DNA of 64,000 nucleotides from Amphiscolops sp. MND2022 (lineage: Eukaryota). This document shows, in pieces, positions 1 through 59,460 of the stretch. Each line of letters opens with the position of its first letter. The stretch's first letter is position 1. The stretch covers positions 39,000,001-39,064,000 of the forward strand of contig OZ076409.1 in the NCBI GenBank assembly GCA_964187785.1, written 5' to 3'. The notes under the pieces were generated by a model. It was not told where the DNA came from and ran no database searches. It saw only the letters and a program-made list of their open reading frames with translations. A program made the position numbers and the translations under genes.

Positions 1-1441
1 CCGCAAGTTGGCCAAACCACATGGTACATCTACATATGCTAATTATGACTAATCATCACTTTACAATGTCGCAATTGCCTGCACACAGTGTCATGGTTTC
101 TATAGCAACTCAAATCATTCAATAATGTACTAATTTCAAGTCAAAACAGAGTAAGCTGCATCACAGGATGAGAAAACGATGTTTTTCCAACTAATTCTAG
201 CATTAAAATCAATACTTCAAAAGCAAAGATGGAAACGCGATGAATTCGTCAGAATATTTGCTGATTTTCAAGTCTAGTTTAGCTCTGGATGAAAATGCGA
301 TGAATGGTGGTCTTTTAGCTCGAAAATCAACACGATATGAACTGACGATGATAAAAGGATGAACTCGTCTTCAAAATGAATGATTTCCAGCACAATTTAA
401 ATCAACGATGGTAAAAGGATGAACTCTCCTCGAAAATAACTAATTTCCAGCACTAGTGAAATTGACGATGAATTCAGGATGAATTCAGCCAATAAAACAG
501 GTGAAACAGCTAATTCTGCAGTGAAGACAAATATACGATGACTTTAGGATGAATACATTCAAAAAAACAGCAAAATCTAATGAATGAAATTCCAACGATG
601 GGTTTAGGATGAACTCAACTGAAAATTCGGCTAGTTCTAACGTAAGTCGAACTAGCGATGAATTTACGATGAACTAGTGATGAGTTAATCTAATAAAACA
701 GATATCCAGCACTTCACTCTTTTTTAGGATGAATTAAGGATGTACTTTCTCATTTCTTGTAGTTTCTGTTCAGGACGATGAAATATAGATGTGTTATGCT
801 CTTTTTAAGAAATGAGAAGCACATTGAAGGTTAATAATCACAAAACGACGATGAGTATAGGATGGCTTTCATGCATTTTAAAGTCCCGTGAGATCCGCTG
901 ATGGATCACTAAATAAAATCAAATATATGTCCCAAATTTTGTTCACCCGCAATCTTGGCGATGTGATTGCGATGAACCTTGATAATATAGCACCGTAATT
1001 TCACTAATAGATCAAGTTGTAGGATCACTAAGTCCGCTGATGGATTAGTGATGAACTTTCCTGAAATTCGTCACGACTACAAGTCCTGAGGCGAGGGAGC
1101 TAGTAGAAGTTACAGATTCCATTATTTCTACATCTCTCGGTCCAGTCTGACCGGAAGACTTCTCTCCCTTATCGTGACAAACCAATATTGAATAAGATAG
1201 CACATTAAAAGCTATTGGCAAGATCATTTGTGCGGACACCGGAATTAGAGCGCTCAGTATTAAGTAAATATATATAGCTCAAACTCAGGGGGGATAGGGA
1301 TTAAAGTACAAGTAACGTAGGGTTGCTCACAACCATGGCTCTTATTATATGACATCATATTGCCCATATCTAAGTACATAAGACATAATATTTACATTAC
1401 AAATATTTAGTAGATTATATTTCCATCATGCTGGCATGACA
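1..1441 (-). repeat. 3' LTR of element A (far boundary uncertain: before base 1, or TGTCATG at 89)
   Basis: Matches 17051-18491 at offset 17050, with two mismatches seen by eye (563, 632). Identity stops exactly after ...GGCATGACA. Confidence 0.92.
167..974 (+). promoter_or_regulatory. Array of 13 GATG-N7-GATG motifs in the LTR (repeated at 17217-18024)
   Basis: Motif starts at 167, 228, 288, 347, 407, 467, 537, 597, 657, 728, 777, 850, 960. Spacing is mostly 60 or 70 bp. The regulatory function is inferred. Confidence 0.8.
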
Positions 1442-1455
1442 CTCCCCGGGGCGGG
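1442..1455 (-). promoter_or_regulatory. Polypurine-tract region of element A
   Basis: Minus strand reads CCCGCCCCGGGGAG directly followed by TGTCATG (start of the 3' LTR). The CCCGGGGAG core also occurs in the PPTs of elements C and D. Confidence 0.75.
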
Positions 1456-2566
1456 ATTTGGACTGAGAGTGCAGGGACCAAATGCGCAGAGGATGGTTGT
1501 CTCGGCGTTGGCTTCGACTGATCCTTCGTTTGGTTGGGGAGAAAATGGCCTTCGTTAGTTCTGAATTGGCATGTCCTTCGTTTGTTCTGTCCTGTGAGAG
1601 CTTCTCTGAGAAGAGGACCTTCGGTAATCGTCTTTTCTGGCATCATCCTGGGTGATTTCGGTTAAAATTTTCGACGCGGCAACTCTAATTCTTGGTCCAT
1701 CGAATGTCCGCTGACCTGCATTTTATTGGTTGTCATGCTTTTGACGGGAGTTTCGGCTGGTTATTTTCGGTAGAAGCTGATTTCTCGGAGAAAAGTTTCC
1801 CTCCAAAACGCCTACGCTGAGTAAACAATTCGATTAGCTTCACTGACAAATTGGCAGCGAGTCAGGGATGAATGAACGATGAATTGTTTGCTCAGCGAGA
1901 CACTGATGCTGTTTAGCGGAATGGCTGGCGCCGTTACTTGTTTACTCGCGATGAAAGGAGATGAATCGTTGCCATAGCAACTGTCAAAAGTTACTTCCGC
2001 TGCTCGACTTTTGAGTGAAAGAGAAAAGAGATGAATTCGTCGCCATAGCAACTGTTGCTCGATCTGATTGGCTGAGACTGAACTTATAACTGAAGGAAAA
2101 TACAACCGGTTGTCAGCAGCATTCTCATCCATAAATCATCCTCCATTCAAGTCGGTTTGAAAATCGCCACGATTTCCTTTGCGCGTTTCCGCTCAACTTC
2201 GTCGGTATAGATCTGAGACTGGCAGCTGTCAACAAATCAAATACTTGAAGTTTTTTGTCAAGTCCTGGGAGGGGACGATCCATTTTCAGAGAAGGCTTGA
2301 GTTGGTTGTACTGGGAAGAAAAGTGATGTCAGTATTTGAAATCGGAGAATTTTCATCGATTTTTCATCTTCTGAATTCAAGTATTTGATTAACATGGCAT
2401 TCAAGCTGCGCCGCTTTTTGAAATCTTCTATTGAATTTGTTCTTCTGTAATCATGGTTGATCAGGCCATTTAATTACTGATCAAATTCTCTGCTCCTGGA
2501 TTCTTCGATTTCTTTCCTTCTTTCACCGTCTTCCATTCTTTTCAGATTGTTTTGCAATTTTTCGCG

Positions 2567-5500
2567 ATGTCGGATATCAACTCCATCTATTCGTTACCGG
2601 AGACCGAGGCCACAGAAAGTAAGTGCACTATTTTTTCTCTTCTTCACAAACGGGCCGGGGAATAATTAGGAATTGAAGGCGTGTCTTGGTTTTAGCGGAC
2701 TCCGTTCACTCTGTCGGCATAATTTCCGAACTGACTACTTTGCAGACAGTTCCGCCTCAAGATGCTCCGATCCCTGCAGCATCTCACGCACCTCAGTATC
2801 AACCTGAGCAGCAAACTGAACAGGCCCCTAACGTCCCGTATCTTCCGCAGTGTAAGTACTATCCTTCCATTCTTCAGTTCAGTCTTCGAATCCCTCATAT
2901 CTCATCCTTACTCTGTCCAGTAGCTGACTCCTTTTCGTATGGTGTTTCAGACCACTACCCCTGGTATGCCTCCCTAGGCAGCATCACCTTCGGGTGGTAT
3001 GACCGCCACATGCGGGACATGCTGCGGGATAGCATCCAGCAGTACAGTGAGTTTGTCAATTTCCTTTTCACTTCTCTAGGCTATCGTCCGAACACTCCGA
3101 TGTGATTCCGATGTAAACATCTCATCTGCATGTAGTGTCCTTTGCGGTCGATTACCCATGTAATTCACCTTCGAGATGAATTTAGGATGTGTCATGAACA
3201 TTCACAGCTCTTCATGACTGACTCGCTGTAAATCCCATTTTTGAAGATGAGTTTTGGATGTATTCTTCTCCGGTTTTCTTTCTTCGCGCGGCGTACGCGC
3301 TCTTTCTTCTCTTATCGTCGTCGTCCAGTAACTGTTTCTTCTTTCAGGCCCCACACCGATCCACGCACCAAGGCCTCGTCCCATCAGCTATTCCGTAGGA
3401 GTAGGGACGAGTGATTTCGCCGCAACTAGTGCTGATGCTAGCACTCAAGGAGGGCCTCCTCAACTTGACTTGTCCTCGTTCCTTCAGGACTTGTCATTCG
3501 GGAGTGTAAGTTCTCCTGTCAGGCAGGCGCCAGTGTCGGTACTGTCGCCAGTGCTGAGGGGTTCTTTCGCCGCTAGTAGTCCTCCTCCTGCTCGTATCAC
3601 TCTCGACGCTGCTGTGAATGCTGTTGTCGATTGCGTGGATGCAGTCATCGATGCCGTTGTCGATACCTCTGATCGAGCAGTCCAGGCCGTTGTGGAAGTC
3701 AGTGAGTCCTCCACCTTCCATGATCCTCTTGTTGAGGAACCTGTCATCGTTGCCTCTTCTTCTGTTCCTGCCTTTTCAGTCAGCGGCACTGATACACTTG
3801 GTGATGCTTCCGTGAGTACTGCCGGCGGTGCTGAGACCCTACTTGTTGAAGTCCCTGGTGACTTCTCGTCCGACAGCCTTCTGCCTGCTGAACCTGACCG
3901 AGAATCTGCTTCTCCCAGTGCTGATCTCATGTCGACCGTGGCTTCTCCCATGGGACCCAGTCTACTGGATAGTGATGACGAACCAATCGCGTCCCGTCTG
4001 CCAGGTTAACTAAACAGCTTTAAACTGGTGAAGTATCTGATCAGTAGATTTTTCATTCATTTCCTTCTTCGCTTTTGCTTTCACTAGCATTTTTCACATT
4101 TTTCTTCTTTTCTATCCATTTTTCATCGTTCTTCTGTTTTCACTATATGGTTTTCTGCAGTTTTCCATTTTCCATCACATTCTCATCGTCAAAAGTCGTT
4201 GAACAATAGTTTTCGCTCTCTAGTCCTTTTTAGAAATTTCATCTCTTTTACATCTTTAAAATTTTCTCTTTTCGGTTTTCGCTATTTGTCGGTGTTTTCT
4301 TTTCAGTTTTCATCTCTTTTTCATCGTTAAGTTGTTTTCGCTCTAAAATATCTCAATTTTTGGTTCAAAGTCGTTCTATTTATCTCTTTTCCATCGTTCA
4401 AGTTTTTCATTCTTTAAGGTTTCCATTTTTCATTCTGGTGGTGTGCAAAATGCATCTCTTTTTCATCTTTTCGTTTTCTTCGTTTTTCGCTTATATTTCC
4501 TGATGAAAATATTATTTTACATCATTTTTTCATCACTCCGGGTGACTTTTGGAAGTTTGCGGTGGTTTTTTCATTTTTCAGTTTTTAAAGATTATTTTAA
4601 GATGATCTTGGAATTTTGTGGGAACGTGGTCGTTTTTAGTGGATGTGCTATGTGTTGGCATGTGATTATTTCTGTTTGTAGGGCGAAAAGTGATCAAGTC
4701 ATGGTGGTTTTCTCATGAATACTGTGGGCTTGCACTGGGCTATGCACGAAGTCATCAATCGCGGCTATCATTCGTTCGATGTTTACTGTGCAAGCGTGAT
4801 ATCAATGTTGGCAGCCGTGGTATCACTACTTTCATGGAGCATTGTCGTGGGCTCCGTCACCATCGTTTGGACTGTCTGATTCGTTTGTTTCGGGATTTAC
4901 CGTTGCGGCGACGCGACGGGTCATTCATGAGTAATGAAGAGAGTGTGGAGTGTAGGAGCAGCCTGGGCGGTGCAATGGTGCCGTTCATTGAGACGTGCCC
5001 CTCCTTTAGTGTACTGGAGGTGTTTGAGTTGGAAGCAGCTGGACGACCTGTGTGGGGGGACGAGGAGGAAGAGGATCTATTGTGTGAAAAGACGGTGCAT
5101 CTGTTCGTGTGCCTGGTTATTGACTCAATCTATCGTGGGTGTCAGTTCGCCAGCGTAACGAGTTTGTGGGAGGTGATGGTTGCGTCAGAGCCGCAACATG
5201 CCTCTCTTTTCGGTGTTACTTGCGAAGTGAATGACGTGATGGTAATTCGTATTTCTTTTTGTTTTTTGTTTCATGAAGGTTCGTGTAGATGGAAAAAAAA
5301 TACATTTAGTGGGTGGTTTTCCATAGGTAGTTTTGAAGCTTGGGTAGGGGGGATTTTCAACTATTAATTGTGTCGGGTTATTTTTAAGCGGATAGTGAAT
5401 TAATGTATAGTAAAGTTGATGTTTGTTTTTAGAGTGTGGTTCTACTGAGTTTGTGGCCGTACGCGATGAAGAGGCTAATCACTCTGTGGTCTAACTGTGG

Positions 5501-7347
5501 GTTCACTAGCTTTCATGTGGCTGTTGGGCAGGGGCGCGTGACTGGCACGGTCACAATGTGTTCTCTAGAAGGGATCAGTCAGTACTGTGTCTTCAGTTTT
5601 TGTCTGTCTCAGGATTGGGAAAAACGAGTTGTCACGTGGATGATTAACATGTGGTGTTGTTTGCTTGGAGAACCTGTTCCACTTGGACTGTGTTGCGATG
5701 CGTTGCCACAGCTGGGTGGACTGTTCCAAGCCGCCACTGGCGTTGGGTCACTGGAGTTGAAGACGCTGTCATTGTGTGAGATCAGTCGGACAATTGTGGA
5801 CGTGGGAGGGCGGGCGCTCGGCGGGACTGATATTCATGTGGTGCTGAATCATCTGCAGAAAAGACTGAAAGGATATGTCAGGGATCCTCTGTTGTTGAGC
5901 TGCCCTCATCTGTTGCAGGTCGGTGTAGTCTTCCGCTTTTATTTGAGTGTTACTATGAGTTGTACTCTTTGTCTGTTTCTGTTGTTTGTATATTGGTAGT
6001 AGTTTGTATTGTAATATTTTGTTTTATCTATGTGGAGCTTGTTATGTTTTGTTTAGGCGATTTTATCCGGGGAAGTCTACGTGTGGACTCTTGCTGATGT
6101 GTGCGATGAATTACGTGCCAATTGGGCAGAAGTGCTGTGTCTAGTTCGATTCGCTTCGGGAGACGGGCCAGTAGATGCGTTGGATCTTACTTTGAGGGTG
6201 GAGTTCGGGATCCCAATCAGGCTCCGGGCACTTAGTATGGTCTATCGTGCTTGTTAGTATGTTGTATACTTACCGGGTGGGAAGTTTCTGTAGTTGGCCG
6301 TTTTTACGTATTCGAGTGTTTAATCAATTCGCATTTTTCGGGAAGGGAACGGGGGGGGGGTTAGTCCGATTATTTACTGTGTATAGAATTGTTGTGTTTT
6401 TCATTTCAGTAGTGACGTCGTACGAAAAGAGTTTCGGGTCTTCATCATTGCGGAGTTGCTACTGGGCGATCGAGAGTGCATTCTTTGTGAAACGCCTGCT
6501 GACTCTACTGGTTGACGAAGAGAGCCTGCCCACTGATCTGGATATCCGTGGGTGGTTGTTTGTGGATGTAGACAGTTATGTTGTGTCAGCGACTAAGTTA
6601 CAAGCCCTTATCGCGAGTTTCAGCTCGGATGAGAATTTGACGGAAGATGTGGCTGTGTATGAAGAGGATGTGTCCCGAGTGCCTAATTTCTTATTGTCTA
6701 TCGTCAGGAACGTATTATTGCTACCAGGGATTCGTGACGATCTTGCTTTCGTGCGAAGTGTCTTTAGTTCACCCAGACTGGTTTGTGTGGCGGAAACTGA
6801 TCTTGTGGCGGAAATTCGCAATTTTACTGGTTTACTTGTGGAAATGGGGCGGATCAGTTTAGTCGAACAGGATCGAATGGAGCTCGGATTTCTGGAATTT
6901 ATAAGGGCTTTTCGGTGCGAGCCTAGGCCAGCTGGGGCGACTGCCGAGTATTCAGCCGTTGATCTGTTGCGTTGCTGTTCCAGTCGCGGGTCACAGAGTC
7001 TGTTACAACTTGTCTTTTGCCTGGGAGGGGTGGTGCAGAGCACTTGCAATACCATATGCGAAGGGATCGGGCACCTGCCGAGCGATGTCATGAGCTGTGT
7101 GTGTGCAGTAATCTCTGGTTATTTGTCTGCTAATCATGTGCGAAGTTACGGTAGTGTCAGTGGGCCACTGATGGAAGAAGTGATGGAGTCGCACAGAAGG
7201 CTCGTCGATCTATCAGAGATTACAGAGGGCATGTTGTGGGACGACGTCGGTATCGTGGCTGGGGAAGATTATCGTCTCCAGTTATATGCTAGTCTTGGTT
7301 ACGATGTGACCGGGGAGCGGGCTGCCAGTCCCGAGATTGGAAACTGA
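2567..7347 (+). CDS. Spliced antisense accessory gene of element A, about 1046 aa: low-complexity N-terminus, C2H2 (BED/TTF-like) zinc finger, degenerate hAT-transposase-like region
   Basis: Exons 2567-2618, 2696-2851, 2951-3046, 3348-4004, 4682-5241, 5433-5918, 6057-6252, 6410-7347. All 7 introns are GT..AG with matching phases (1,1,1,1,0,0,1). Total 3141 nt with no internal stop. C-x2-C-x16-H-x5-H at 4780-4860 (CLLCKRDINVGSRGITTFMEHCRGLRH). The exon 4 donor (CAG|GTTAAC) is the weakest link; if it is unused there are two genes. Confidence 0.8.
4173..4534 (-). promoter_or_regulatory. CATC-N7-CATC motif array inside intron 4 of the antisense gene
   Basis: Motifs at 4173, 4240, 4311, 4381 (TATC variant), 4453, 4520, about 70 bp apart. 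Confidence 0.75.
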
Positions 7348-7447
7348 CTTATTAACTGTTTATGTTGTTCATTGTTTTGCTATATAATTTGTTGTATTTA
7401 CATATTAGTGTAGTTATTCATATGTTGGGAGACCCATGAAAAAGGTC

Positions 7448-7453
7448 AATAAA
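7448..7453 (+). terminator. Candidate polyadenylation signal of the antisense gene
   Basis: AATAAA 100 nt downstream of the TGA at 7345-7347. Confidence 0.55.
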
Positions 7454-7677
7454 TGGAAAGCACAGTAATGACCATAGTGCGAATGATACAAATCCAGATG
7501 CTACGGCGGAAAGATCGGTAGTAGTGTGTTTACAACATTAGTTATTTTGGTGCCCAACAGCTGTTTTTCTTTTGAGTTGTTAGTGATAGTTACAGAGGAT
7601 ATTAAGTACGTGTAAATCAACAAGTTCGTCCAACAGTTCACTTGAAGCATTGTCTTCGGTATTTTTGTATCATAGAT

Positions 7678-9943
7678 CATCGGTCGCGCATCGCTTTTAT
7701 GGTGTTCATCGTTATTACATCTCGTGGTAGTGTAAGTAACTCGTCAGCGTTTGATCTTTGATTTTTCATCTCATTTTCATCACGTTTTCCTCGGTCGACC
7801 AAGCGACGTCGTGAAAACTGTTTTTGTCATCGTTTTTACATCTTTCGGTGCGTCAGAAACATTGCATGTTGTTACATGTGGTTTTTCTACGTATTTCATC
7901 ATTTTTTCATCTTGCGTTTGATTTGAGCACTTTCGTGCGTTATTTGCTATAGTTCATCGTTTTTGCATCGCAAGTTTGTCTTGTTCAGTTTCTGCTCATT
8001 TTGCTGTATAGTTCATCTTCTTTTCATCGTGCGTTTGAAATGTACGGATTTTTGCGTGTTTTCGATGTTATTTGGCTATAACGTAAGCGGGGGTTGCATT
8101 TTTCGTGTCCGGAGGAAATTTTTATTAATATTGTGGTGTTTCGGATTGTTTTCTTCATGTATTTTAGCGTTATACGGTTATAACCATTTGTCGTGTTTTT
8201 GAATTTGCATGAATTTTATGGTACATGTGTTTTAATCATCGTCGTCATGTTTCTAATTTGTCAACTTCGGAACGTCATTGCATGTATTTTTAGTTCGAAT
8301 TCTGGTGACCGCCGCTTGCGTGGCAGTCGAAAATAAGTTCACTCAGCAGTGGTACTGATAGCCTGTAGGCGTGCAAGGTACTAGTGGCTTCAGTCCAGAG
8401 CTGGGTGAGTGGAGCTGCTCCGCTCCTTTCAGATAAATGGAATCTCGTAGTTTCGGGCTATATATAGTCTATATGTCATTTTTTCGGTCGGTTGTTTGCC
8501 ATTATTCGTCGAAATGGGTTTGTCCATTTGACGGTCAGTCCGATCAATCAATGTGATTGACATCTACGGTTATGCATGTGTCCAGTTTTAGACTATCTGT
8601 TTCTTGTATTTGCATGTATGGATGGTTACATGATGTGCTCTTTTAAATGGGTTTCCCCATTATTGACATGTCGTTATATGTTCGGTGGTAGTTTCATGTT
8701 TTCTAATTTTATTTTCGTTCATTTGGACAGGGCTTTGTCGTCACAAAGCCCCTACAAAACTAACTGAGAATCCACTAGCCGCTGGATAACCAACGCAGCA
8801 AGCTTCATCCGAATATGGTTGTGAGCTCCCCGCCTCAACTAACCAGCACTCTTTTCAGAGAAATGCCAGCCAGCACGAAGGAATGATTTTAGTTTTTCGG
8901 TAGGGGTGTTTTGTATTTTATGAGCTGATGTTTACTGGGGGGTGCTCACTCCTTTATTAGTTTTGTAGGTGTTTCGTCAGTTCTTATATTTTGCATGTAA
9001 GTTAGTAGACTTCATGTATTTTCGATTGTTTGTTTCATTTTTATTCGTCTAGGTTCGGATGGTTTTGGTGTGAATTGCATATATTATCTCATTCATTTTT
9101 GAACGGTACATGTATATTTCCGTGCGTTGCTCATTTGTATTGCATGTAGTTTGGAATTGTTAATTGCTTTCGTGACGTCATTGATTTGGCAGGTCTTTGA
9201 ACTTTACATGTATTGATCATTTCATTTTTGTGTCGCATAATTTCGTTGCATGATTCGAAATAAGGTCGGTTGTTTTTTATCGTTTCGTGGAGTTACATGT
9301 TGTTTGCGAATTAGCTGATTTATTGTGATGTTATGTTGATGGTGTTTCCCATCACAAAGAGGTGTTGGTAAGTCATTTAATATTTTCGAATTTCCATTTA
9401 GACTAAATTCATCGTTTTGACATCCTCCAGCGAAGCTAGAGTATTGTGTCAGGTTAACGATAAATTCGGTCGCGATTTGATGGTAGTGTCCATCACAAAT
9501 TCATCTCGTTAATTGATTTCATGTAATTTATGAATAATTGGATCGAGTTCATCGCTATTTCATCCTCTGGCCGAGCTAGAGTCTTATGATAGCATGAACG
9601 TGAGTGCGTTCGCATTCTGATGGTATTTCCCATCTCAAATGCATCGTTAGTAAATATTGCATGTTGATTGGTCTATTTTTTGACTGAGTTCATCACTTTT
9701 TCATCTCTCGTGTGTCTGAGTTAAATTTTCGTGTGGTTTCATCCTTTTTTCATCTCAAATTTTGTGTGTTGTTTTTTCTGGTTTTTTGATCGTTTTTCAT
9801 CCGTTTTACATCTCGTTTTGTTTGTATGCGGTTTTCATGTGATTTTTAGTAACTTTTCATCCATTTTACATCTTCATGTACTTTTTAAGTTAAAATTGCA
9901 TGTAATTCGTTCGTTTTTGTGATTTGTTCATCCGTAACACATC
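7678..9943 (-). promoter_or_regulatory. Non-coding spacer with two CATC-N7-CATC arrays (7678-8028 and 9410-9943)
   Basis: Motifs at 7678, 7707, 7767, 7828, 7897, 7955, 8014 and 9410, 9491, 9550, 9631, 9691, 9740, 9798, 9858, 9929. Confidence 0.75.
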
Positions 9944-9970
9944 TCAGATTTAAAGTGAAACTTTTCTTGG

Positions 9971-12900
9971 CTAAATCGTTACGTCTATTTTGTTGGTCTT
10001 TCTCAGTGCGTTTCTAGCTGAAGTAATCTCATGAATGAGGAAGTCTGGATACGTTTTCGGTGTAGGGTTCTCACGTAACCTGTACCTACTTTGATTTGAT
10101 CTAGACGGTCTAGAACTCATCCTTTCTTCATTTTCGTTTTGCGTGTTTGTCTGTTGTGACTGGTTTTCGTGTTGTTCGTCTCTCAGAGGTACTCTTATCC
10201 TACTTTCATCGCGGGGAGGCGGTAGAATAATTTCTTCTCGCGTTCCAAATCTAACTGTAGGTGGTCTAAAGTTGTTGTGATCAGTTTCTACTTGCTGATA
10301 GTCTATCCTCGTGGTTATTTCTGGTGGAATTACTTGTGGAGTGTGTTGTTCTTGTACCCGAGGAATTGTTTCTTCTGAAGGCTCTTTTTCGACCAAGTCT
10401 TGATCTAGATTGTCATTCTCATCCTGATCTACTTCGTCGGTCATCGGAATATTCGAGTCGAAAATGTCCGTGTCTTCAACCCTTTCGGTATCTGGGTAGA
10501 GATGTTTGGACATGTTGATGTCGTCAATCGGAAATTCCGGTTTGAACAATCTCAGTCGCATGCGATGTACGCACTGAGTTTGGTGTGTGCCTACTTTGCG
10601 GATGATGTAGTTGCTATCGGATAGCACTTTAATCACCTTGTACGGTCCTTTCCAATGGAAAGTTTTAAACTCTTCTTTGCTTCTCTGAGAGTCGTACTTA
10701 GGGTCTAGTAGGAACACAAAGTCATTCACCTTCAGTGGCTGTGCTCGTGCTTTTCTATCATAGTACGTTTTGTACTTGTGATAGGCGGAAATGATGTTGT
10801 CTAGATTGTCTCTGAAGATAAAATTCATTTTGTCTAGAATTTCGTTCACGTCTTTGCACTTTGTTTCAGCCGGTTTGTTTGCGTTTCGGAATTGCAGATC
10901 TAGTGAGTTGTATGGTGTTCTTCCGTGGAAAATTTCGGTTGGTGAGCATTTCAGTGAATCATGATACGTTGTGTTATGGGCCATGATTGCTATGTCGACA
11001 TAGCGGTCCCATTGTGGTCTGTCTGCGTTTACACTAATCTTAAGGATCTTTTTCAGTTTCGCGTGCGTTCTCTCCACCATGCCTATTGTCTGCGCGTGCT
11101 TTATCGTGGCATGGGAGATGTGAATATCAGCCGCTTTCGCGATTTCAGACAGAAGTTCAGCCGTGAACGCCGTGCCTTTGTCGGTCAGAATGTGTTTGGG
11201 CACATACGCGTGTTTTGTGAAGATCGACAGTAGTCCTCTGACTACGGAATGTGTGTCAGGTCTCTTCAGCGGAACGGCGAACAGGTAGCGCGAAAAAACG
11301 TCAACAGCCGTCAGAATGTGTGTAAAACCGTTCGATGCCGGGAGTGGACCAACGATGTCTATTTCCAGCAGGTCTTCTGGTCCGTCGCACGGGTCGTAGA
11401 TTTTTTGTAACGGTGGACGTAGTTGCGTTTCTTTTACACTTTTAGACTTCATGCAGTTTTCACATCCGTCAAGGACTTTTTGAACTTTATAGGCTAAGTT
11501 AGGAGAGTAATATCTTTTACGAAGTTCATACAACATTTTCTTTAAACCAGGGTGTCCTTGTACCGGGCTGTTATGTAGAGTCCTAATTATTTTCAAAATA
11601 CAGTCTTCAGGAACGACTAACTGCTTATGAGACTCTAGTCCCGTGTGGTCAAAAAACTGTCTGTACAAGACACCGTTTACAACTTGTAGGCGTTTTCGAT
11701 TTTTGTACAACTTTTGAAAAAACTGGTCTTGCATGTTAACTGGGTGTTGCAAAATTTCAGTACCTTCTAAAAATCTAATCATTTTTTGGATAACCCAGTT
11801 ATTTTTCTGGACCTGAATTAGATCGATCCCCTCGGCGGGGCTAACCTGACTCATTACCGGGTGTGATAATGATACTTTACGGATGAATTGCGAGAGTTGA
11901 ATCGGCTCGTCCACGTCTGTGAGGCGGTACGTCAGATGGTTGTCAGTCGCGAAGTCATCTGAGGCCGCAGTTCTCTCACAGTTGGTGAACTTCATCCCTT
12001 TCCCATCGTCATGAGCCACGTCAGTGCCAGTTGCCAATTTCATCTCTTTGACATCCTTCTGGCGTTTGCATCTGAGTGGTTCGCTCGCGGGGAAGTAATC
12101 AGGCTCGTCTTCCTCCTGTTTTGGTGTACGGGAGGCGATGTCGATCTCGATCCTGTGAATTGGAATAGTATCAGTCAATTTTAAATGTACACGGTCTTCA
12201 GGTCTAATCTCAAGCCGAGATAAGTAATCCGCTGCGGGATTTTCAACTCCTGGAACATGTGCTAATAGAAAATTGAACTGAAGGGTTTGATCGCAAAAGT
12301 TCCAAAGTGAAGGCGGGATATGCTTCGCCTGGAAAAATCTAGTCAAGGCCTTATTGTCAGTCATAACAATGATGGGTTTTTTCGCACCCCACAAAATGTG
12401 GCCAAATTCATCGAATGCAAAGTGCATAGCTAAAAACTCTTTGGCATACATTGTTAGAGACATCTGGCCGCCCTGAAATTTCTTAGAGCCAAATGCAACA
12501 GGGGCGTATGTATGTTTGACTGACGGGTCTGCATAATCCTCGATTAACAACACATAGCCTGCAGCGTGTTCGCTGGCGTCACACATGATTACCAGTTGTT
12601 TATCTGGTAATGGCAATTTCAGAGACACTTTTGTTGCTTTTAACAAACTTTCATTAATTTCAAAAATAGCATCTTTATGTTGTTGGTTCAGCTTGAAAGG
12701 GACGTCTTTCTTGATGAGTTCCTGTAAACAACAAGTTTTATCAGCTAGACGGGGAATGTAAGACCTGTAAAAGTTCACAAAACCAAGATAACGTTGCAAC
12801 GCTTTCACTGAATTGGGGGGTTTCAACTTCGTTAAATAGTCTGTTACGCGTTTTTCAATGGGAGCAATACCAGTGCTAGAAATGGTTTTTCCCAAGTACT

Positions 12901-15064
12901 CAATTTGTTTTTGTCCAAATTCACATTTACTCATGCTAAGTTTAAGACCAGCTTTTTGCAATTGTTGAAAAACAAGTTCAAGGTTGGTAATCAATTATTC
13001 GGGTGAGTGTGCTGCAATTCCAATATCGTCAACGTATTGGGCACAGCGGTCCGCTTTGACCAGGGGGTCCAAATACTCACGGATTACTCCTGTAAATGCT
13101 GACAAAGAACGATTAAGACCTTGTGCTAGACGTAAAAATGCAAAAGTTCTAGATCCAAAATTAAACGATAACAGTTGGACAGATTGCTCATCGGCCATTG
13201 GAATGCAATGGTAGGCCTGGGAACAATCAAGTTTGCAGAAGTACTTTTTCCCGGCCATGTGTTGGGCAGCGTCAGCAATTGTTGTTACGGGATGATTGTG
13301 CTCACCGTAATCGTTTTTGATCAGGTGGTTTATTCTTCTCAAGTCAACTAAAATCCTCAATTTACCATTAGGTTTACGCTGAGCAAATATCGGGGAAGAG
13401 TATTTGCTGTGAGGCAAAGTAGTTATAATCCCGTACTCTTGCATTAGGGCTAACTCCACGAGCAAATCGTCCTTCAAATTTGTCGGAGTCGGGAGACTTT
13501 GTGAATAAACAGGTTCTTCATGTTGAGGTGTTAACTTAACTTTAAAATCAGTGTTCATGCCAATATCAAAACGGTGTCTAGCAAAAATGGAGTTGTACTT
13601 TACCAGCAACTCCTCTACCTGTAACCGTTGAGACGGAGTAAGAAGCGAGTCGTCCCAGTTGAAGTTCTTCAGGAAGTTCATCCGTTGTTCATCGGATTGG
13701 GACGGGTCAAGCTTCTCGAGCTCTCGCAGTGCCAGAATCTCATCATAAATCCGTCGCTCAATTGCGTTGAGTTTGTCTGGCTCACTGCACGTCTCGGGAG
13801 TTGGGTACCACTTGGTTGACTTCATTTCAGGGTTCACAAACAGTTGGTTGATCACTGCTTCGGCTTCATCTGGATACTTGGTGATCAAGTTCAAGTGTTC
13901 CACTGGCATGGGCGTGATGTTTGCCGCCTGGTGTGGTGTCGGGATGCGAAAGTGTGCCAGAGTGGTGTTGGCTTCAAGTGTGTACGTGTGGTTGTTTGGG
14001 TTGGTGACCTGGATTGTCGTCTTGCCCTCGTCTAGGTCAACCAAAGCTGGAGAAACAAGCAAACACGTCTTTCGCATGAATCCAGGTGAGCCCTCAACTG
14101 TACCAGTTGTAAGTGAGATGTCCGCGTCACTGTGGACCTGTATCATCACTTGATGGAGAGGAGGGATCACTGTTCTAGTACTGGAACACAAATCAATTAA
14201 ACCAGTTTTGAATCTGTTGTTCTTTTGCTGTCTAACTTGCATGGACATCATGTGATTAGGGAAGTGGACAAGGTGGTTTTTGATGTCTAAGTTGACTGAG
14301 TACTTTTCAAAAAAGGACATTCCAATTAAAATTGTTCCCATTGTTGGAAGGATTAGGAACGTTTCTTCGAATACTTTTCCAGCAACGTAAAATCTAAGTA
14401 AGACTTGCTTACGCACTGGGACTAAGTTCCCGTTTGCTATTTGAATTTTGAAATTCGGAGGGGGGAATTCTTGAAGGATGGCTTCTGGATGAGCCGTTGT
14501 TATTTTTCGCAGTTCGGCTTCAGACATTGCACTTTGTATTGCGCCTGTGTCTAAAAGTGCGCTGTTTTCGTATTTGTAAACTTGAAGAGGGACGTACAGC
14601 ATTTTATCTTTCTTGTTTAAATGTAAAGTGGGACTGAGAACGTGAATTTCTGTTTTAATTGCATGTTTTTTAGTTTTTGAAACGTTAATACTACTCTGTT
14701 TTGCATGTTTTTTAATACTAAGCCGTTTGTCGATTGTTGAGTGTGAAGTCGAGTCGTCGTCTAGATGGTGGGTTTCCATCTCTTTGGCATCTTCCACCTG
14801 CCTCATGGTGTTTGGTTGCCAGTTCATCGTTTGTTCATCGTTGATTTCAGCGAGTGGAGAAAAACGGCTGCCGTTGAGTTGACTTGCATTTCTCATCGCT
14901 TTTTCATCGTTGGAAAGTCTTCGCTGATAGACGTCGTCAGCTTTTGGTCGTTTGTCCAGTGAAGGCTGCCATTTCTTCATTGGACGGTCGTGTGTAGTCG
15001 GTTGAGTCGAAAGTCGTTGGTCGCGCGTTGTGTTTCTAGCGGGCGGAAATCGTGGCGGAATCAA
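9971..15064 (-). pseudogene. pol: Pol of element A (protease, RT, RNase H, integrase with GPY/F) with one in-frame TAA at 12995-12997
   Basis: Motifs: LLDTGA (PR); YVDD (RT); CDAS..E..TDN..ADYLSR (RH); H-x6-H..CENC, IDIVG, TDKG, GMVER (IN); WKGPYKV. ORFs 12995-15064 and 9971-12994 are in the same frame, separated only by the stop. Confidence 0.93.
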
Positions 15065-16566
15065 AAACCCTGATTTATGTCTTCATCAGAGTAGGTTTCT
15101 TGGTCTTCTTCTTCGGTGACTGCTTGCATAGGGTTCATCGGCTTTTGTTGTCGTTTTAAGTCTTGTCTTCTAGTTCTGTTGTCATCTTGTGAATTCGTTG
15201 CGTATGGAATCTTTCCATATGCAGAACTGCTTTCTTTAGGGACACGTCGTCTGCAATCCCTTGCTGAGTGGCCTGTGTAACCGCAAATCTGGCAGACCAA
15301 TTTTGGATTGTATTTCGGCTTATCTGGATCGGCTGCTTTCTTCATTGGGATTGCATCCTCCTTCTTTATGCCGTTCGCTTCGTCTCGTTGTCGGGCGCGA
15401 CATTCCGTTTTGCGGTGTCCTGTCTTTCCGCAGTAGAAACATTGTCCTTCAAATCGTTTTCGTTCTGTCGGTTGTGCGGTCGTCGTTGTTGTTGTAGGCT
15501 TCGTCGTTGTAATCGTAGGTGGTGCTGAGGAGGTGACCGCGTTGAATGGTTGGATTGCCGTAGGTGGCGCGACGTACTGCTGGTACTGGTATTTTCGCAT
15601 TAGGTAGGTTTTGATTTCCTCTGGGGAGCTCTCTTCTTTGTTTGCCATGGTGAGCTCTTGTTGAATCTCGACTGGCAGTTTTCCAAACAGGAACATTTTG
15701 ATTATTCTGTCGGCCTCATTGCCGAAGGCTTGTTTGGCAGTCTTCTTGAGATTTTTGAGGAAATCGCCGAATGTTTCTGTTGTGGGATCATAGCGTGCTT
15801 GATCCCATTTGTAACGGGCCACTTCCTTTAGATCCTCTTTTGCAAATTCTTTTCTGAAGAGGTCGAGTACGTCCTTTAGTGTTGTCATCGGCGTTATCTG
15901 GATGGATTGTCAGTATTCTATTGCGTCATCTCTCAAAAGGCTTTGAAAGAAGTGTAGTTTGTTCTCCTCGGTGATTTTGTTGGCAAGCGGGCTAAGGTGG
16001 TTGAGGAGAAGGTGTTCAAATTCGACGAATTTGTCTTTTTGGCCTCTGAAATTTGGCACGTGTGTCTGCAGAAGCTTCGTGTTGGTGGTTGTGTTTTTGA
16101 TCCGTTGGGGGATCGTCTCGATTGCATTGAGCAGTCGTTCCTCATTGCTTCTGGGGGTTGATTCTCCTTCGTCTGAATCGTCTTCTTGGTAACTTCTGAA
16201 GTTGGTGAAGCTGGTGGTCGGGCGGTTGGAGCGGGTTTCTGTAGCTCCTGTCACCATGTCGAACCCAACCGTGTGGGTCGGCTTTGAAGGACCTTTCGAG
16301 GTTGACTGTCGGTTTTCGGTGTCTGTCTTACTTATGACAGCCATCATTAAGTCCTTCAGTTGACTGAACTCATTCTGTAGTTCGTTTATCTTTCTCTCAT
16401 AACTCTCTTTTATTTCAGATAACTGAGACGAGATATCAGAAACCTCGTTGCTATCAGAGTCATTGGCAGAAGACTGAGCCATGTCTGGGTCCGTTTGAAT
16501 GGGTGTTTCTGATGAGGAACTAATAACTCTTCCGCTTCTGAGTTCGGTGCCTAGATCTGGGTTCAT
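15061..16566 (-). pseudogene. gag: Gag of element A with two CCHC zinc knuckles and one in-frame TGA at 15910-15912
   Basis: CFYCGKTGHRKTEC and CQICGYTGHSARDC. ORFs 15910-16566 and 15061-15888 are in frame (AIEY*QSIQITPMTT). Confidence 0.9.
15064..15070 (-). other. Putative -1 ribosomal frameshift slippery site G GGT TTT at the gag/pol junction
   Basis: Gag ends CAG GGT TTT TGA. The -1 frame GGG TTT TTG ATT CCG is the open pol frame. Fits X XXY YYZ. Confidence 0.75.
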
Positions 16567-17050
16567 AGAGGTGAGAGAAAAGGAATTATGAGTGAAGACT
16601 GGATTCTGGATGATTTTCGATGTATTTTACTATTTTGTGCCGTTATTCGAACTCAAATTCACTATTTCTGAACTTGAGATGTAAATGCGATGAGTTTTAC
16701 AGTAAGACAAGGATACTAGTAAAGAATGAGAATAGTTAACGAGGATTAAGTAGAGTTCATCCAAATTTCATCGAATAGATATCAATCAAGAAATTACTCA
16801 GAGTTGTGAAGGTAGCGTTATTTACGATGAATAAGAGATATGTTTTCTAGTTCAAATCTGTCGTAATTCGTCCAACTGGACAGTAGCTAATCGCAATTTC
16901 GGTCTGTGTAAACTCTAATGGCGGTCCAAAATACAGCAGTTCACGTGTCTTTTCGGGCTGGTAAGACGCTAAATCTCTTACCAGCCGACTCTTATTGGCT
17001 ATTGCCAGTTGGTGCTAATTGGTAAGTCACGTGACCGGTGTTGTGAACTG

Positions 17051-18491
17051 CCGCAAGTTGGCCAAACCACATGGTACATCTACATATGCTAATTATGACT
17101 AATCATCACTTTACAATGTCGCAATTGCCTGCACACAGTGTCATGGTTTCTATAGCAACTCAAATCATTCAATAATGTACTAATTTCAAGTCAAAACAGA
17201 GTAAGCTGCATCACAGGATGAGAAAACGATGTTTTTCCAACTAATTCTAGCATTAAAATCAATACTTCAAAAGCAAAGATGGAAACGCGATGAATTCGTC
17301 AGAATATTTGCTGATTTTCAAGTCTAGTTTAGCTCTGGATGAAAATGCGATGAATGGTGGTCTTTTAGCTCGAAAATCAACACGATATGAACTGACGATG
17401 ATAAAAGGATGAACTCGTCTTCAAAATGAATGATTTCCAGCACAATTTAAATCAACGATGGTAAAAGGATGAACTCTCCTCGAAAATAACTAATTTCCAG
17501 CACTAGTGAAATTGACGATGAATTCAGGATGAATTCAGCCAATAAAACAGGTGAAACAGCTAATTCTGCAGTGAAGACAAATATACGATGACTTTAGGAT
17601 GAATACATTCAATAAAACAGCAAAATCTAATGAATGAAATTCCAACGATGGGTTTAGGATGAACTCAACTGAAAATTCGGCAAGTTCTAACGTAAGTCGA
17701 ACTAGCGATGAATTTACGATGAACTAGTGATGAGTTAATCTAATAAAACAGATATCCAGCACTTCACTCTTTTTTAGGATGAATTAAGGATGTACTTTCT
17801 CATTTCTTGTAGTTTCTGTTCAGGACGATGAAATATAGATGTGTTATGCTCTTTTTAAGAAATGAGAAGCACATTGAAGGTTAATAATCACAAAACGACG
17901 ATGAGTATAGGATGGCTTTCATGCATTTTAAAGTCCCGTGAGATCCGCTGATGGATCACTAAATAAAATCAAATATATGTCCCAAATTTTGTTCACCCGC
18001 AATCTTGGCGATGTGATTGCGATGAACCTTGATAATATAGCACCGTAATTTCACTAATAGATCAAGTTGTAGGATCACTAAGTCCGCTGATGGATTAGTG
18101 ATGAACTTTCCTGAAATTCGTCACGACTACAAGTCCTGAGGCGAGGGAGCTAGTAGAAGTTACAGATTCCATTATTTCTACATCTCTCGGTCCAGTCTGA
18201 CCGGAAGACTTCTCTCCCTTATCGTGACAAACCAATATTGAATAAGATAGCACATTAAAAGCTATTGGCAAGATCATTTGTGCGGACACCGGAATTAGAG
18301 CGCTCAGTATTAAGTAAATATATATAGCTCAAACTCAGGGGGGATAGGGATTAAAGTACAAGTAACGTAGGGTTGCTCACAACCATGGCTCTTATTATAT
18401 GACATCATATTGCCCATATCTAAGTACATAAGACATAATATTTACATTACAAATATTTAGTAGATTATATTTCCATCATGCTGGCATGACA
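17051..18491 (-). repeat. 5' LTR of element A (inner boundary uncertain, at or before 17051, or 17139)
   Basis: Matches 1-1441 and ends ...CATGACA followed by the unrelated flank GGGAC. No canonical tRNA PBS was recognised next to it. Confidence 0.92.
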
Positions 18492-18919
18492 GGGACAATC
18501 TAATTCGAACGATTAACAGGTAACGACCAAACTCCAGTGTTAGAGGTTGGAGTCTAACTCTAACTTTGAGAATAAAGAACATGATCAGCGAACGACTCTA
18601 TTTAATGGAGACCATGCGGTAAAATGAAACTCAGCTTAGCTGAAGCTTAATGTGGTTTGTTTGACAACAACTATTTCTTTTTACTGCTGCTAAACTGAAC
18701 TTTTTGTTTTACGAGCTTTGCGCTCTGCCTCATCCGGTTTGTTATTTTCCGCCCATATTCCATATGGGAAAGGAAAATATTCAAATCAAACGTTTTTTTT
18801 TTACAAAATTTGCCAAGCACCAAATTTATATTTAACTTTAAGGGTGTTACCCATAGAATTCAAATCATATAAATTTAGCTTCGTACGATTTGTATTTGTG
18901 GAGATTTCTGGACTTTTTT

Positions 18920-21100
18920 AGTTGACCCCAATGACCCCCGAATGACCCAATAAAGACTCCAAAATAGGAAAATTTCCAATTTTTTTAAGTTTAAAGGCAG
19001 TTTTTGTCATTTTTTTTTTATAGATATCGTATATTAGAATGTTGAAAACGTTTAACAAGGCACAAACTCGTTGCCCAATAGTCTTTTATGAAGAGATAAT
19101 TGCTGTTTTCCAGAAGGAAAAGATCTCAAATTGACACTGGAAATGACAAAAATCCAAACATTTCCCAATTTTCAAAGTTTTTTTTTGCAGTTTTTGTCAA
19201 ATTTTAGATAGCCTTCGTGGATTAGAATGTAAAACACGCTCACATGGCACTACTTCGTTGTCCAGTAGGCCTTTCCGGAGAGATAATTGCTGTTTTCCAA
19301 ACGAAAAAGTCTCAAATTGACACCGAAAAAGACAAAACTCACAAAAGTTTTCAGAGTTTTTGTTTTTTTATTAAAGTTTTGCGGATTGGAATATTTGGAT
19401 GTTTTCACGATTTTGCGGATTGGAATATTTTAAGGGGTCAACAAGGAGAGAGTGGGTTGTCGAGTAGGCTTTCTCGAAGAGTTTATTGCAGTTTTCTACG
19501 TGAAATTGTCTCAAATTGAACGCGAAAACGACAAAAAACCCAAAACTTTCCATTATTCCAAGCTTTTATGCATTTTTTGTTAAAGCTTTGACGGTTTTCG
19601 TGGATTGGAAACTTTAAAAGTGTCAACAAGGAGAGAGTCGGTTGTCGGGTAGTCTTTATTGAAGAAATAATTGCAATGTTCTGAATGAAATGTCTGAAAT
19701 TGGCATCGGAAATGACAAAAAGCCCAACTTTTTCCAATTTTCAAGGGTTTCATGCCTTTTTTCCGAATTTTCGACCGACTTTGTGGATTGGAACGTTGAA
19801 AAGGGTCAACAAGGAGAGAATGTGTTGTCTAGTATGTTTTTCCGAAAAGTTTAGGGCAGTTTGCTATATGAAAAACTCTCAAATTGACACCGAAAACAAC
19901 AAAAAACCCAAAAGTTCCAATTTTCAATTTTTTTATTGCATTTTTTGTAATGGTCTCGACGGGTTTTTGGATAGGAATGACCTAAAGGGTCAACAAGGAA
20001 AAAATTGGTTGTCCAGTAGGCTTTCCCGAAGAGTTTGTTGCAGTTTTCTCCGTGAGAATTTCCCAAAATGACACCGAAAACGACAAAAAACCCTAACTTT
20101 TTCCATTTTTCAAAGATTTTATTCAATTTTTTTTAAAGTTTCTTCGGTTTTCGTGACTAGAAATTTTCAAAGGACCAACAAAGAGAGCGTGGGTTGTCGA
20201 AGAGTCTTTAATGAAGAGATAATTGCAATGTTCTGAATGAAATGTCTGAAATTGGCACCGGAAATGACAAAAAACCCAAAATTTTCCAACTTCCAAGGAT
20301 TTTATGCATTTTTTCCAAATATACGACAGACTTCGTCAATTGAAACGTTGAAAAGGGTCAACAAGCAAAAAATGTGTTGTCGAGTATGATTTACTGAGGA
20401 GCTTACTGCAGTTTTTAAGTGAAAATTTTTCAACTTTACACCGATAATAAAAAACCTCAAAGTTTTCCACTTTTCTATGTTTTAATGCATTTTTGTTAAC
20501 ATTTCGACAGACATCGTGGAATTGGAACATTTTGAAGGGTCAACAAGGAGAAGATGGGTTGTCGAGTTGTCTTTAATGAAGAGATATTTGCAATGTTCTG
20601 ATAGAAAATGTCTCAAACTGACACCGTAAGTAACAAAAGTCACAAAATTTTTCAATTTTACCGCTTTTATGAATTTTTCCTAAACTTTCGACAAACTTCG
20701 TCAATTGAAACGTTAAAACGAATAAACAAGGAAAAAATTTGTTGTCCAATTCGCTTAGAAAAAGTAAAAATGCAGTTTTTGAAATGAAAACTGTCCGGAA
20801 ATGACATCGAAATACAAAAATTCGAATGTTTTACGATTTTCATTTGTTCTATTATTGTCAAAATATCGATAGACTTCGCGGACTAAAATGTTAAAACGCT
20901 AAAACATGGGGAAATATGTTGTTTTGAGGAGCATCGTTACGAGATAAGTTCAATTTGTTAAAGATAATTGCATCAAATTGACCATGAAAAGTCGGAAAAA
21001 TTGAAGTTTTTATCGTTTTTGATGCAATTTCTGTACAATTTCCGATAGATTTCGTTCTAAACTCCAATACAATATCTCAAAAACATTAAAACGAGGTATG
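18920..21100. repeat. Diverged tandem array, unit about 184 bp, about 11 copies
   Basis: The AAATTGACACCGAAAA-like anchor recurs near 19128, 19314, 19513, 19697, 19881, 20066, 20249, 20432, 20615, 20798, 20975. GGTCAACAAGGA and GAAGAGATAATTGC blocks also recur. Confidence 0.85.
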
Positions 21101-59039: not shown

Positions 59040-59460
59040 CGAAATGACCCCAGAATGACATAAAAATGACCCCAAAGTGACAAAAATTGCAGAATTTGGG
59101 ACCTTTAACGTTTTTAGGCACCTTTTGTCAAAATTTTGACAGACTTTGTTGATTAGAATGTTTGACACTTTCGACCATGAAACAAATCTGTACAGTACGT
59201 TTTTTTGAAGAGATGAATGCAATTATTTGAGAGAAAAATGCCTCAAATTGACACCGAAAACAACAAAATTTCCAAAAAATTCCAATTTCCAAGATTTCTA
59301 TGCAACTTTTGTCAAATTTTCGAGACGAAAATTTTTGAATAATAATTTTTGGCGAGATAAAAAATTTCGTGAAAGAAATATGCCACAAAAGACTTCAAGG
59401 ATTAGAACTTCAAAACCGTTTAAGAGCTGGTGACTTCGTTGTTCAGTAGGCTTTAAGAAG
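59040..59460. repeat. Second copy of the ~184-bp-unit repeat family, interrupted by element D
   Basis: Shares the TGACCCC leader repeats, GATTAGAATG, GAAGAGAT and CTCAAATTGACACCGAAAACAACAAAA with 18920-21100. Confidence 0.7.

Follow-up and report, generated by a model that had tools for sequence, protein, structure and literature searches.

A Gypsy retrotransposon family combining phased arrays of a paired GATG motif with an antisense zinc-finger gene of likely hAT origin

VANDAL elements are plant Mutator DNA transposons of Arabidopsis that encode VANC, a protein with DUF1985 and DUF287 domains which removes DNA methylation in these elements (PMC5735166). TnpA of Spm is one of the transposase-derived regulators that lack catalysis and act on cognate copies through motif clusters; such regulators either remain within their own DNA transposon or are taken over by the host, and the accessible main text of that report contains neither "retrotransposon" nor "LTR" (bioRxiv 10.64898/2026.08.24.746577). 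VANC and TnpA, both from plant DNA transposons, are the published sequence-specific counter-silencing systems that we found in the accessible sources. In the Retand Gypsy elements of plants, a long region between pol and the 3' LTR holds an antisense gene predicted to encode a DNA-binding protein, together with family-specific repeat arrays; the available text proposes a regulatory role for this gene and explicitly leaves its function unresolved (PMC11963269). Other accessory proteins of plant elements have been described, with no case like the present one in the accessible part of that source (PMC13547354). In a search of the accessible literature, we met no earlier report of an LTR element whose antisense gene is of the BED or hAT-derived type. 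In this study, we analysed a probable element of this kind in a 64-kb stretch of DNA, hereafter the window. A first-pass annotation of the window had noticed arrays of two GATG tetramers separated by seven bases, and had proposed that these arrays and the antisense protein form a self-recognition system comparable to VANC.

The element is a Ty3/Gypsy retrotransposon of 18.7 kb, with 2235-bp LTRs that have TG...CA ends and a 5-bp target-site duplication (18492-18496, plus strand, with the matching copy at the left junction). Its gag, protease, RT, RNase H and integrase follow the Gypsy order on the minus strand. The gag frame (15061-16626) encodes two CCHC knuckles and contains a stop codon, pol (9971-15082, protease to integrase) has another stop inside RT, and a primer-binding-site-like stretch starting with TGG (16239-16256, minus strand) directly follows the LTR end. 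The left LTR (1-1441), which is the 3' LTR of this minus-strand unit, starts 794 bp before the window, and the right (5') LTR spans 16257-18491. The element is young, since the two LTRs differ at just three positions. The gag frame starts inside the LTR (16257-16626); hence, about 120 gag-like codons are duplicated in both LTRs.

Scanning both strands of the window for GATG-Nk-GATG, we found 69 sites at k=7 (38 plus, 31 minus) and only 0-6 sites at each other k from 0 to 15. All but one (27013) of the 69 lie within the Gypsy element. Region 1-17050, which includes one copy of the LTR array, has 53 sites against a mean of 0.79 and a maximum of 5 in 300 local dinucleotide shuffles, and GATG-N7-GATG ranks first among all scanned tetramer and spacing combinations. 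Outside its eight fixed letters, the site is merely A/T-rich after each GATG. These counts agree with the more than 50 copies in the element and the absence of such arrays elsewhere in the window that had been put forward from inspection. We conclude that the arrays are real.

The LTR array (167-1053, plus strand) comprises 15 head-to-tail sites, mostly 59-61 bp apart. The 13 sites and the spacings first annotated there (61, 60, 59, 60, 60, 70, 60, 60, 71, 49, 73 and 110 bp) are exact, and two extra sites are present at 668 (chained) and 1039. Between the LTR and the antisense start codon (1867-2368), the three sites reported before were recovered, at 1867 on the plus strand and at 2126 and 2354 on the minus strand. 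Intron 3 of the antisense gene (3099-3260) has three sites, all on the plus strand, at 3099, 3246 and the previously noted 3175, and intron 4 (4173-4534) has five inverted sites instead of the six first counted. The spacer contains 18: seven inverted sites in one array (7678-8028, minus strand) and nine in another (9410-9943, minus strand), which make up the sixteen recognized earlier, and two further sites on the plus strand. Seven sites in pol (11993, 12041, 13679, 14477, 14777, 14825 and 14894) had been missed; these are coding, and all the remaining sites are in non-coding DNA or LTR. The right LTR holds 17 sites (16678, 16758 and 17217-18103), of which the first two had been assigned to the 5' leader and fall inside the LTR. 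The antisense exons, 3141 nt in total, are free of sites, and so are introns 1, 2, 5, 6 and 7. Spacings cluster near 49, 60, 70, 80, 90 and 110 bp. As first remarked, they approach multiples of 10: the 36 spacings are phased near a 10-bp period (R=0.73, reached by none of 5000 jitter controls), and the phasing remains significant when the 58-62 class is left out (n=20, p=0.0026). The 11-bp repeat and the grid of ~10.0-10.3 bp are different periods.

Comparison among copies indicates that the motif letters are selectively kept. In 11 other LTRs, conservation is 96% at the eight motif letters, 76% at the seven positions that separate the tetramers and 73% in the flanks, in line with the earlier claim that the motif is kept while the intervening DNA diverges. 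The contrast reaches ~97% versus ~66% in the most diverged LTRs. When seven LTRs were compared, the paired GATG was unchanged 90% of the time and the average tetramer 35%; alignment anchoring may make these contrasts somewhat too large. The sites inside pol also persist in relatives. Linkers of different arrays are barely more alike (identity 0.43-0.53) than shuffled ones (0.41-0.49), so that the kept part is the motif and the grid. Recent tandem duplication as the sole cause of the arrays is rejected by this comparison of linkers and tetramers.

The antisense gene sits on the plus strand between pol and the 3' LTR. It is intact, with eight predicted coding exons in phase, GT-AG borders throughout and 1046 codons, and the splice sites of introns 1-4 are kept in five relatives. 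Exons 1 (2567-2618) and 2 (2696-2851) are followed by exon 3 (2951-3046), which is 68-97% identical in clade A relatives, and by exon 4 (3348-4004), which has a conserved start and then a variable, acidic Ser/Pro-rich stretch. Exon 5 (4682-5241) encodes a BED-like C2H2 finger (about 4705-4863, with a putative reading helix at 4816-4842) and a helical domain. Exon 6 (5433-5918) is the probable start of a degenerate RNase H-like fold; exon 7 occupies 6057-6252, and exon 8 (6410-7347) is all-helical and ends at the stop codon. Selection on the gene is purifying, with dN of 0.01-0.6 and dS several-fold higher or saturated. An intact spliced gene and selected motif arrays coexist in the family.

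The finger is 61-81% identical where the remainder of exon 5 is 37-61% identical, and it keeps the spacing C-x2-C-x16-H-x5-H and the upstream aromatic residues. Pfam zf-BED scores 18.8 bits on it, against a cut-off of 20.6 (E 0.0016; 10 of 26 rows match), and was the only family found in the exon frames scanned in Pfam. Five alignments were run against PDB sequences and none reached significance, the best match being ZBED2 (E 0.19). In a low-confidence model (pLDDT 48), exon 6 forms a helix, three strands and a helix, with a weak structural match to the corresponding region of Hermes (152-239; Z 4.3, rmsd 4.0, 76 residues, rank 7). A clade B frame through the finger and exon 6 obtained an Atlas score of 0.89, with 10 of 10 family matches hAT-like; its neighbours include the Buster-like ZBED5/GTF2IRD2 group, which is a lead only. 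For exon 8 of the window element, Atlas gave 0.85 with low recognition, the fold search returned generic helical bundles only, and none of 12 rows matched Dimer_Tnp_hAT in Pfam; the model is unconfident after residue 203. The hhalign profile comparison with two local hATs was negative, exon profiles against 30 local hAT loci reached at best an E value of 0.095, Foldseek gave nothing under E 0.001, and word-indexed protein searches found no matches. The predicted order of an N-terminal BED-like finger, a helical domain and the probable start of an RNase H-like fold would be that of hAT transposases, with which the locus also shares site arrays of the multimer type (PMC10368747, accessible text). 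Unlike in hAT elements, no Asp is invariant in the 14-row exon-6 alignment, and hence there is no conserved DDE triad, Dimer_Tnp_hAT is unmatched, terminal inverted repeats are missing and the sites extend over an 18.7-kb LTR element. Based on sequence and models, the antisense protein is likely a dead derivative of a hAT transposase. An active hAT transposase or a hAT element is ruled out by the lack of an invariant Asp, the LTR ends and the 5-bp duplication.

A profile search for distant exon-5 relatives returned 96 proteins, through which we identified two sister clades that share the layout of the element. Some of the proteins, such as P0075 (100% identity), come from the same genome. P0046 and P0047 have best genome matches of at most 48% and 41%; therefore, they are probably from other genomes, and the gene family probably extends to other species. 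Further distant relatives are P0048, P0052, P0053, P0057 and P0093. Clade C (two elements) is ~75% identical to clade A in pol and 44-45% in exon 5. It carries a composite, GATG-N7-GATG-N9-CATC-N7-CATC, which forms a 39-bp palindrome and occurs 9 times per element (L161 2511-9566; L163 2643-9650), versus 0-2 times in A. Clade B (eight elements) shows 46-82% identity in pol, depending on the segment, and 23-30% in exon 5. Its motif consists of inverted 8-bp half-sites around seven bases, GATGTRGT-N7-inverted in B1 and GATGACTG-N7-inverted in B2, and its arrays are weaker and unphased.

When one LTR plus the internal region was counted per element, the direct doublet occurred 35-46 times in five A elements, 32-33 times in two C elements and 0-1 times in eight B elements. 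The B1 palindrome, with up to 4 mismatches allowed, was found 9-18 times in five B1 elements and 1-3 times in A, C and B2, and the B2 palindrome 8-10 times in three B2 elements and 0-3 times elsewhere. Since five of the eight B elements had served to build these templates, only L159, L164 and L165 are out of sample. At other spacers, B1 scores were 2-11 (spacer 4) and 3-7 (spacer 10). The exact B2 motif occurs 460 times genome-wide, against 2 in the reversed control. The finger changes along with the motif. At helix positions -5/-4 from the first zinc His, we found TT in 8 of 8 A fingers, ST in two C, SS in five B1 and HN in three B2. By the same count from the zinc His, these positions correspond to S66/N67 of Hermes, which contact bases according to the accessible text (PMC10368747). 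The residue at the Hermes R70 position is acidic in all 18 fingers from the genome. Finger and pol trees both split B from A and C, with B2 a single clade in both (96%, 99%). L159 is B1 by finger and motif, yet groups with B2 by integrase at 81%. The RT tree omits L160, which has a short match, and the second Gypsy element of the window; the integrase tree includes both. Motif and finger thus differ together between sister lineages, as a correlation, in agreement with the co-variation that the first-pass annotation had suggested looking for. Shared ancestry alone also predicts this covariation of three changes on the tree, because gene and arrays are physically linked. The four finger types and four motif grammars within one genome are predicted to be cognate pairs, and the two-residue difference between B1 and B2 would predict a four-base change.

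Within clade A, exons 5-8 behave as a swappable cassette (approximately 4450-7700, plus strand), whose nucleotide identity is 55-69% to copies that match the element at 93-100% in the LTR and 5' region. L068 and L069 match the window element at 98.8% in LTRs and 99% in pol, and at 56, 49, 42 and 39% in exons 5 to 8. Synonymous sites of the cassette are saturated or nearly so, against a pol dS of 0.035, with borders near 4450 and 7700. Cassette alleles were also found in L062 and L066, and several allele classes are multi-copy with open frames. As judged from these alignments, exons 5-8 are ancient alleles exchanged between backbones that are nearly identical, perhaps via template switching between co-packaged RNAs. 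While the cassette varies down to 39% identity, all aligned alleles keep the RGITTF-x-EH helix and all carriers keep the same motif. Our guess is that old alleles persist because they evade small-RNA silencing based on homology.

The family is very abundant in the 1.07-Gb genome, presumably that of an invertebrate animal given its animal-like histone H2B, with 2451 candidates for the finger exon; 52 of the 150 scored are at least 96% identical, and the rest 66-85%. Paired doublets number 15,622 genome-wide, against 6 for the reversed pattern, which at 22 per element gives ~700 element equivalents, within the size of the family. Of 20 clade A elements fetched via protein matches, 17 have both LTRs and 57-74 sites, and three are truncated, with 10-22. 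All 30 paired-doublet match loci that were fetched align to the element; among the other listed match clusters, three proved to belong to the family, in contrast to one single match. An 8-kb element (L134/L135, G000:C1:6312000-6331999) retains LTRs, gag and arrays and is without pol and exons 5-8; it is possibly a non-autonomous derivative. This element and the other deletion derivatives, L051 and L137, retain arrays and are uninformative. L140/L170 is an old, more distant element with LTRs 86% identical, seven doublets and an inserted clade A solo LTR. Its finger exon is undetectable, but exons 6 and 8 are still present in broken form (E 0.005 and 0.001), which rules it out as a gene-free relative with arrays. 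No close gene-free relative was found among the elements examined.

The likeness to VANC and VANDAL, in the accessible text, comprises an accessory protein encoded by the element and evolving faster than the transposition enzyme, short motifs of tandem-repeat origin massed in introns, intergenic and terminal non-coding DNA, and a motif that differs between families with different proteins, here over three changes confounded by linkage (PMC5735166). The differences are that the host is an LTR retrotransposon, that the finger is BED-like, that the motif is a spaced pair whose geometry varies by lineage, and that no DNMT1/3 was found in the searches made here. Neither DUF1985 nor DUF287 appeared in the exon frames scanned in Pfam, and the host is Gypsy, not Mutator-like. 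TnpA resembles the predicted protein in its derivation, its lack of catalysis and its clustered motifs, whereas here the regulator would have gone from a class II to a class I element (bioRxiv 10.64898/2026.08.24.746577, accessible text). The Hermes BED domain binds a tetramer only if an AT-rich stretch comes next, and the clade A motif has this same form (PMC10368747, accessible text). The features of Retand mentioned above recur in our element; in contrast, Retand belongs to a plant lineage and has a TRP28 domain and plain tandem repeats, and motif-protein covariation is not reported in the available text (PMC11963269). The frames scanned here gave no Pfam match to TRP28. BEAF-32 and DREF of Drosophila are BED-finger proteins that bind clusters of short motifs at promoters and boundaries, and are encoded by the host, not by an element containing the sites. 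By analogy, the present system works like VANC or TnpA in layout and evolution, and belongs to neither.

The best explanation as a whole, to which we give a probability of roughly 45% from sequence comparison, is that a captured hAT-type gene acts as a self-recognising regulator that keeps copies of the family active. A Gypsy lineage would have captured a hAT-type transposase gene in antisense and lost its catalytic residues, while the BED finger and the oligomerising body were kept as the element's own sequence-specific regulator. Each finger may read one GATG and its AT-rich flank, a dimer or larger ring may read the pair, and several oligomers could align on the 10-bp grid over LTR, introns and spacer. 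In the least certain step, occupancy would hold the two promoters open in the face of silencing by chromatin or small RNA, acting in trans on every copy that carries the cognate motif and without DNA demethylation. Binding of the protein to the motifs of its own element is probable: lineage covariation, the kept motif letters and the Hermes-like form of the site argue for the self-recognition first proposed, and the linkage of gene and arrays, with three changes only, argues against it, as do the unchanged motif among clade A cassettes that vary down to 39% identity and the acidic residue at the Hermes R70 position. Given self-binding, activation or anti-silencing is somewhat favoured, a direction that we infer because tested plant proteins of similar layout activate their cognate copies in the accessible reports (PMC5735166; bioRxiv 10.64898/2026.08.24.746577).

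The VANC-like step that had been envisaged holds only as an analogy. CpG is not depleted in the elements (observed/expected 0.86-0.99), five cytosine methylase matches were found in the genome, of which the two chromosomal loci are DNMT2-like, and an exon-by-exon search for DNMT1-RFD, run without a positive control, gave no match. For these reasons DNA demethylation is an unlikely route, and the effect probably does not act through it. The methylase loci inspected (L166, L167 and L168) comprise the two DNMT2-like ones and a different cytosine methylase on a small contig, possibly foreign. A fuller picture is doubtful, if still a real possibility: the captured transposase would be a private transcription factor that counters methylation-independent silencing, its alleles shuffled to escape small RNA, and the DNA of each lineage a matching address code. 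With the same doubt, these codes would be a tandem doublet, a palindromic pair of doublets, or either of two 8-bp palindromes. A self-recognising regulator would bear on the question of what lets LTR elements build up hundreds of young copies under host silencing, and on the role of antisense accessory genes in Gypsy elements. If true, a transposase was domesticated by another class of mobile element and not by the host, a probable animal host harbours sequence-specific counter-silencing that a class I element acquired from a class II element, and the lineages provide a natural set of orthogonal protein-DNA pairs.

Enhancer repeats are common in LTRs. The arrays may be host-factor enhancers, each lineage being tuned to a different host dimer, while the antisense protein does something else. 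Every motif shares a GATG core that a host family could read, and the LTRs do carry an apparent host site, the perfect palindrome GTCACGTGAC (17026-17035 in the right LTR), which adjoins the array and is presumably an E-box-like host-factor site. However, this palindrome is unchanged in the LTRs of clades A and C and of three B1 elements while the GATG geometry changes, and three geometries would need three or four host factors. Moreover, among the 100 paired matches listed, part of which were assigned to the family by eye, one cluster lies outside the family, and 30 hAT loci of the genome (97 kb) have no site and the other Gypsy element of the window has one. We therefore regard host enhancers as unlikely. 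The palindrome GTCACGTGAC is missing from the one B2 LTR checked. A separate short repeat of ATCGATGG units (L136 4700-4850), outside the family, also yields GATG-N7-GATG.

All the evidence for self-binding would fit equally well a repressor that damps its own family, through copy-number control or exclusion of related copies, with cassette alleles as specificity or compatibility types. The abundance of finger candidates agrees with such control, and the persistence of ancient alleles on a shared backbone suggests balancing selection. Against repression, the tested plant cases of similar layout activate, in the accessible text (PMC5735166; bioRxiv 10.64898/2026.08.24.746577), and the arrays reach far from either promoter, which makes a repressor improbable in our judgement. 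Less probable still is that the protein coats reverse-transcribed DNA and aids nuclear entry, end pairing or target choice. The arrays are present in both LTRs and on a helical grid, and Hermes uses several BED domains on subterminal repeats (PMC10368747, accessible text), but within the LTR the sites are densest 390-960 bp away from the tips, 36 of the 53 non-redundant sites are outside the LTR, and a single 5-bp target duplication was seen.

A motif acting in RNA, as a packaging, export or splicing signal with hairpins in clade B, is very unlikely. In clade B the motif is an inverted repeat enclosing a 7-nt loop, and G-U pairs exceed A-C pairs on the plus strand (74 versus 12 in B1), but this strand is G/T-rich anyway and the arms do not covary. 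In eight of eight elements, real arm pairing equals that of shuffled arms (P 0.08-0.95), with one element reaching 0.04 once wobble pairs are counted; RNA hairpins in clade B are rejected on this ground. A single clade A transcript contains sites of both orientations, which cannot fold. Neutral decay of an ancestral 60-bp tandem repeat is suggested by three short 58-60-bp arrays of 2-2.5 copies each that TRF detects in the non-redundant part of the element. It can be nearly dismissed, as the comparison of tetramers and linkers largely refutes it already, the eight letters and the grid alone are kept, pol sites persist in relatives and other lineages have their own equally exact motifs.

The window and its relatives offered several additional observations. 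The LTRs of clade B appear likewise to contain the start of the gag frame. A second, unrelated Gypsy element (26199-44619) has two extra sense ORFs (28054-31977) with no Pfam match. It also shows an excess of GCGC-N2-GCGC (14 positions in the window), which is mostly in coding frames and not arrayed, and was set aside as an equivalent of the GATG arrays. A 184-bp satellite of ~7 copies lies at 19055-20779, with a related copy near 59235. Finally, a non-coding repeat of ~3.5 kb is present in two inverted copies, at 48500-52030 and 59460-63035, which are 75-92% alike.
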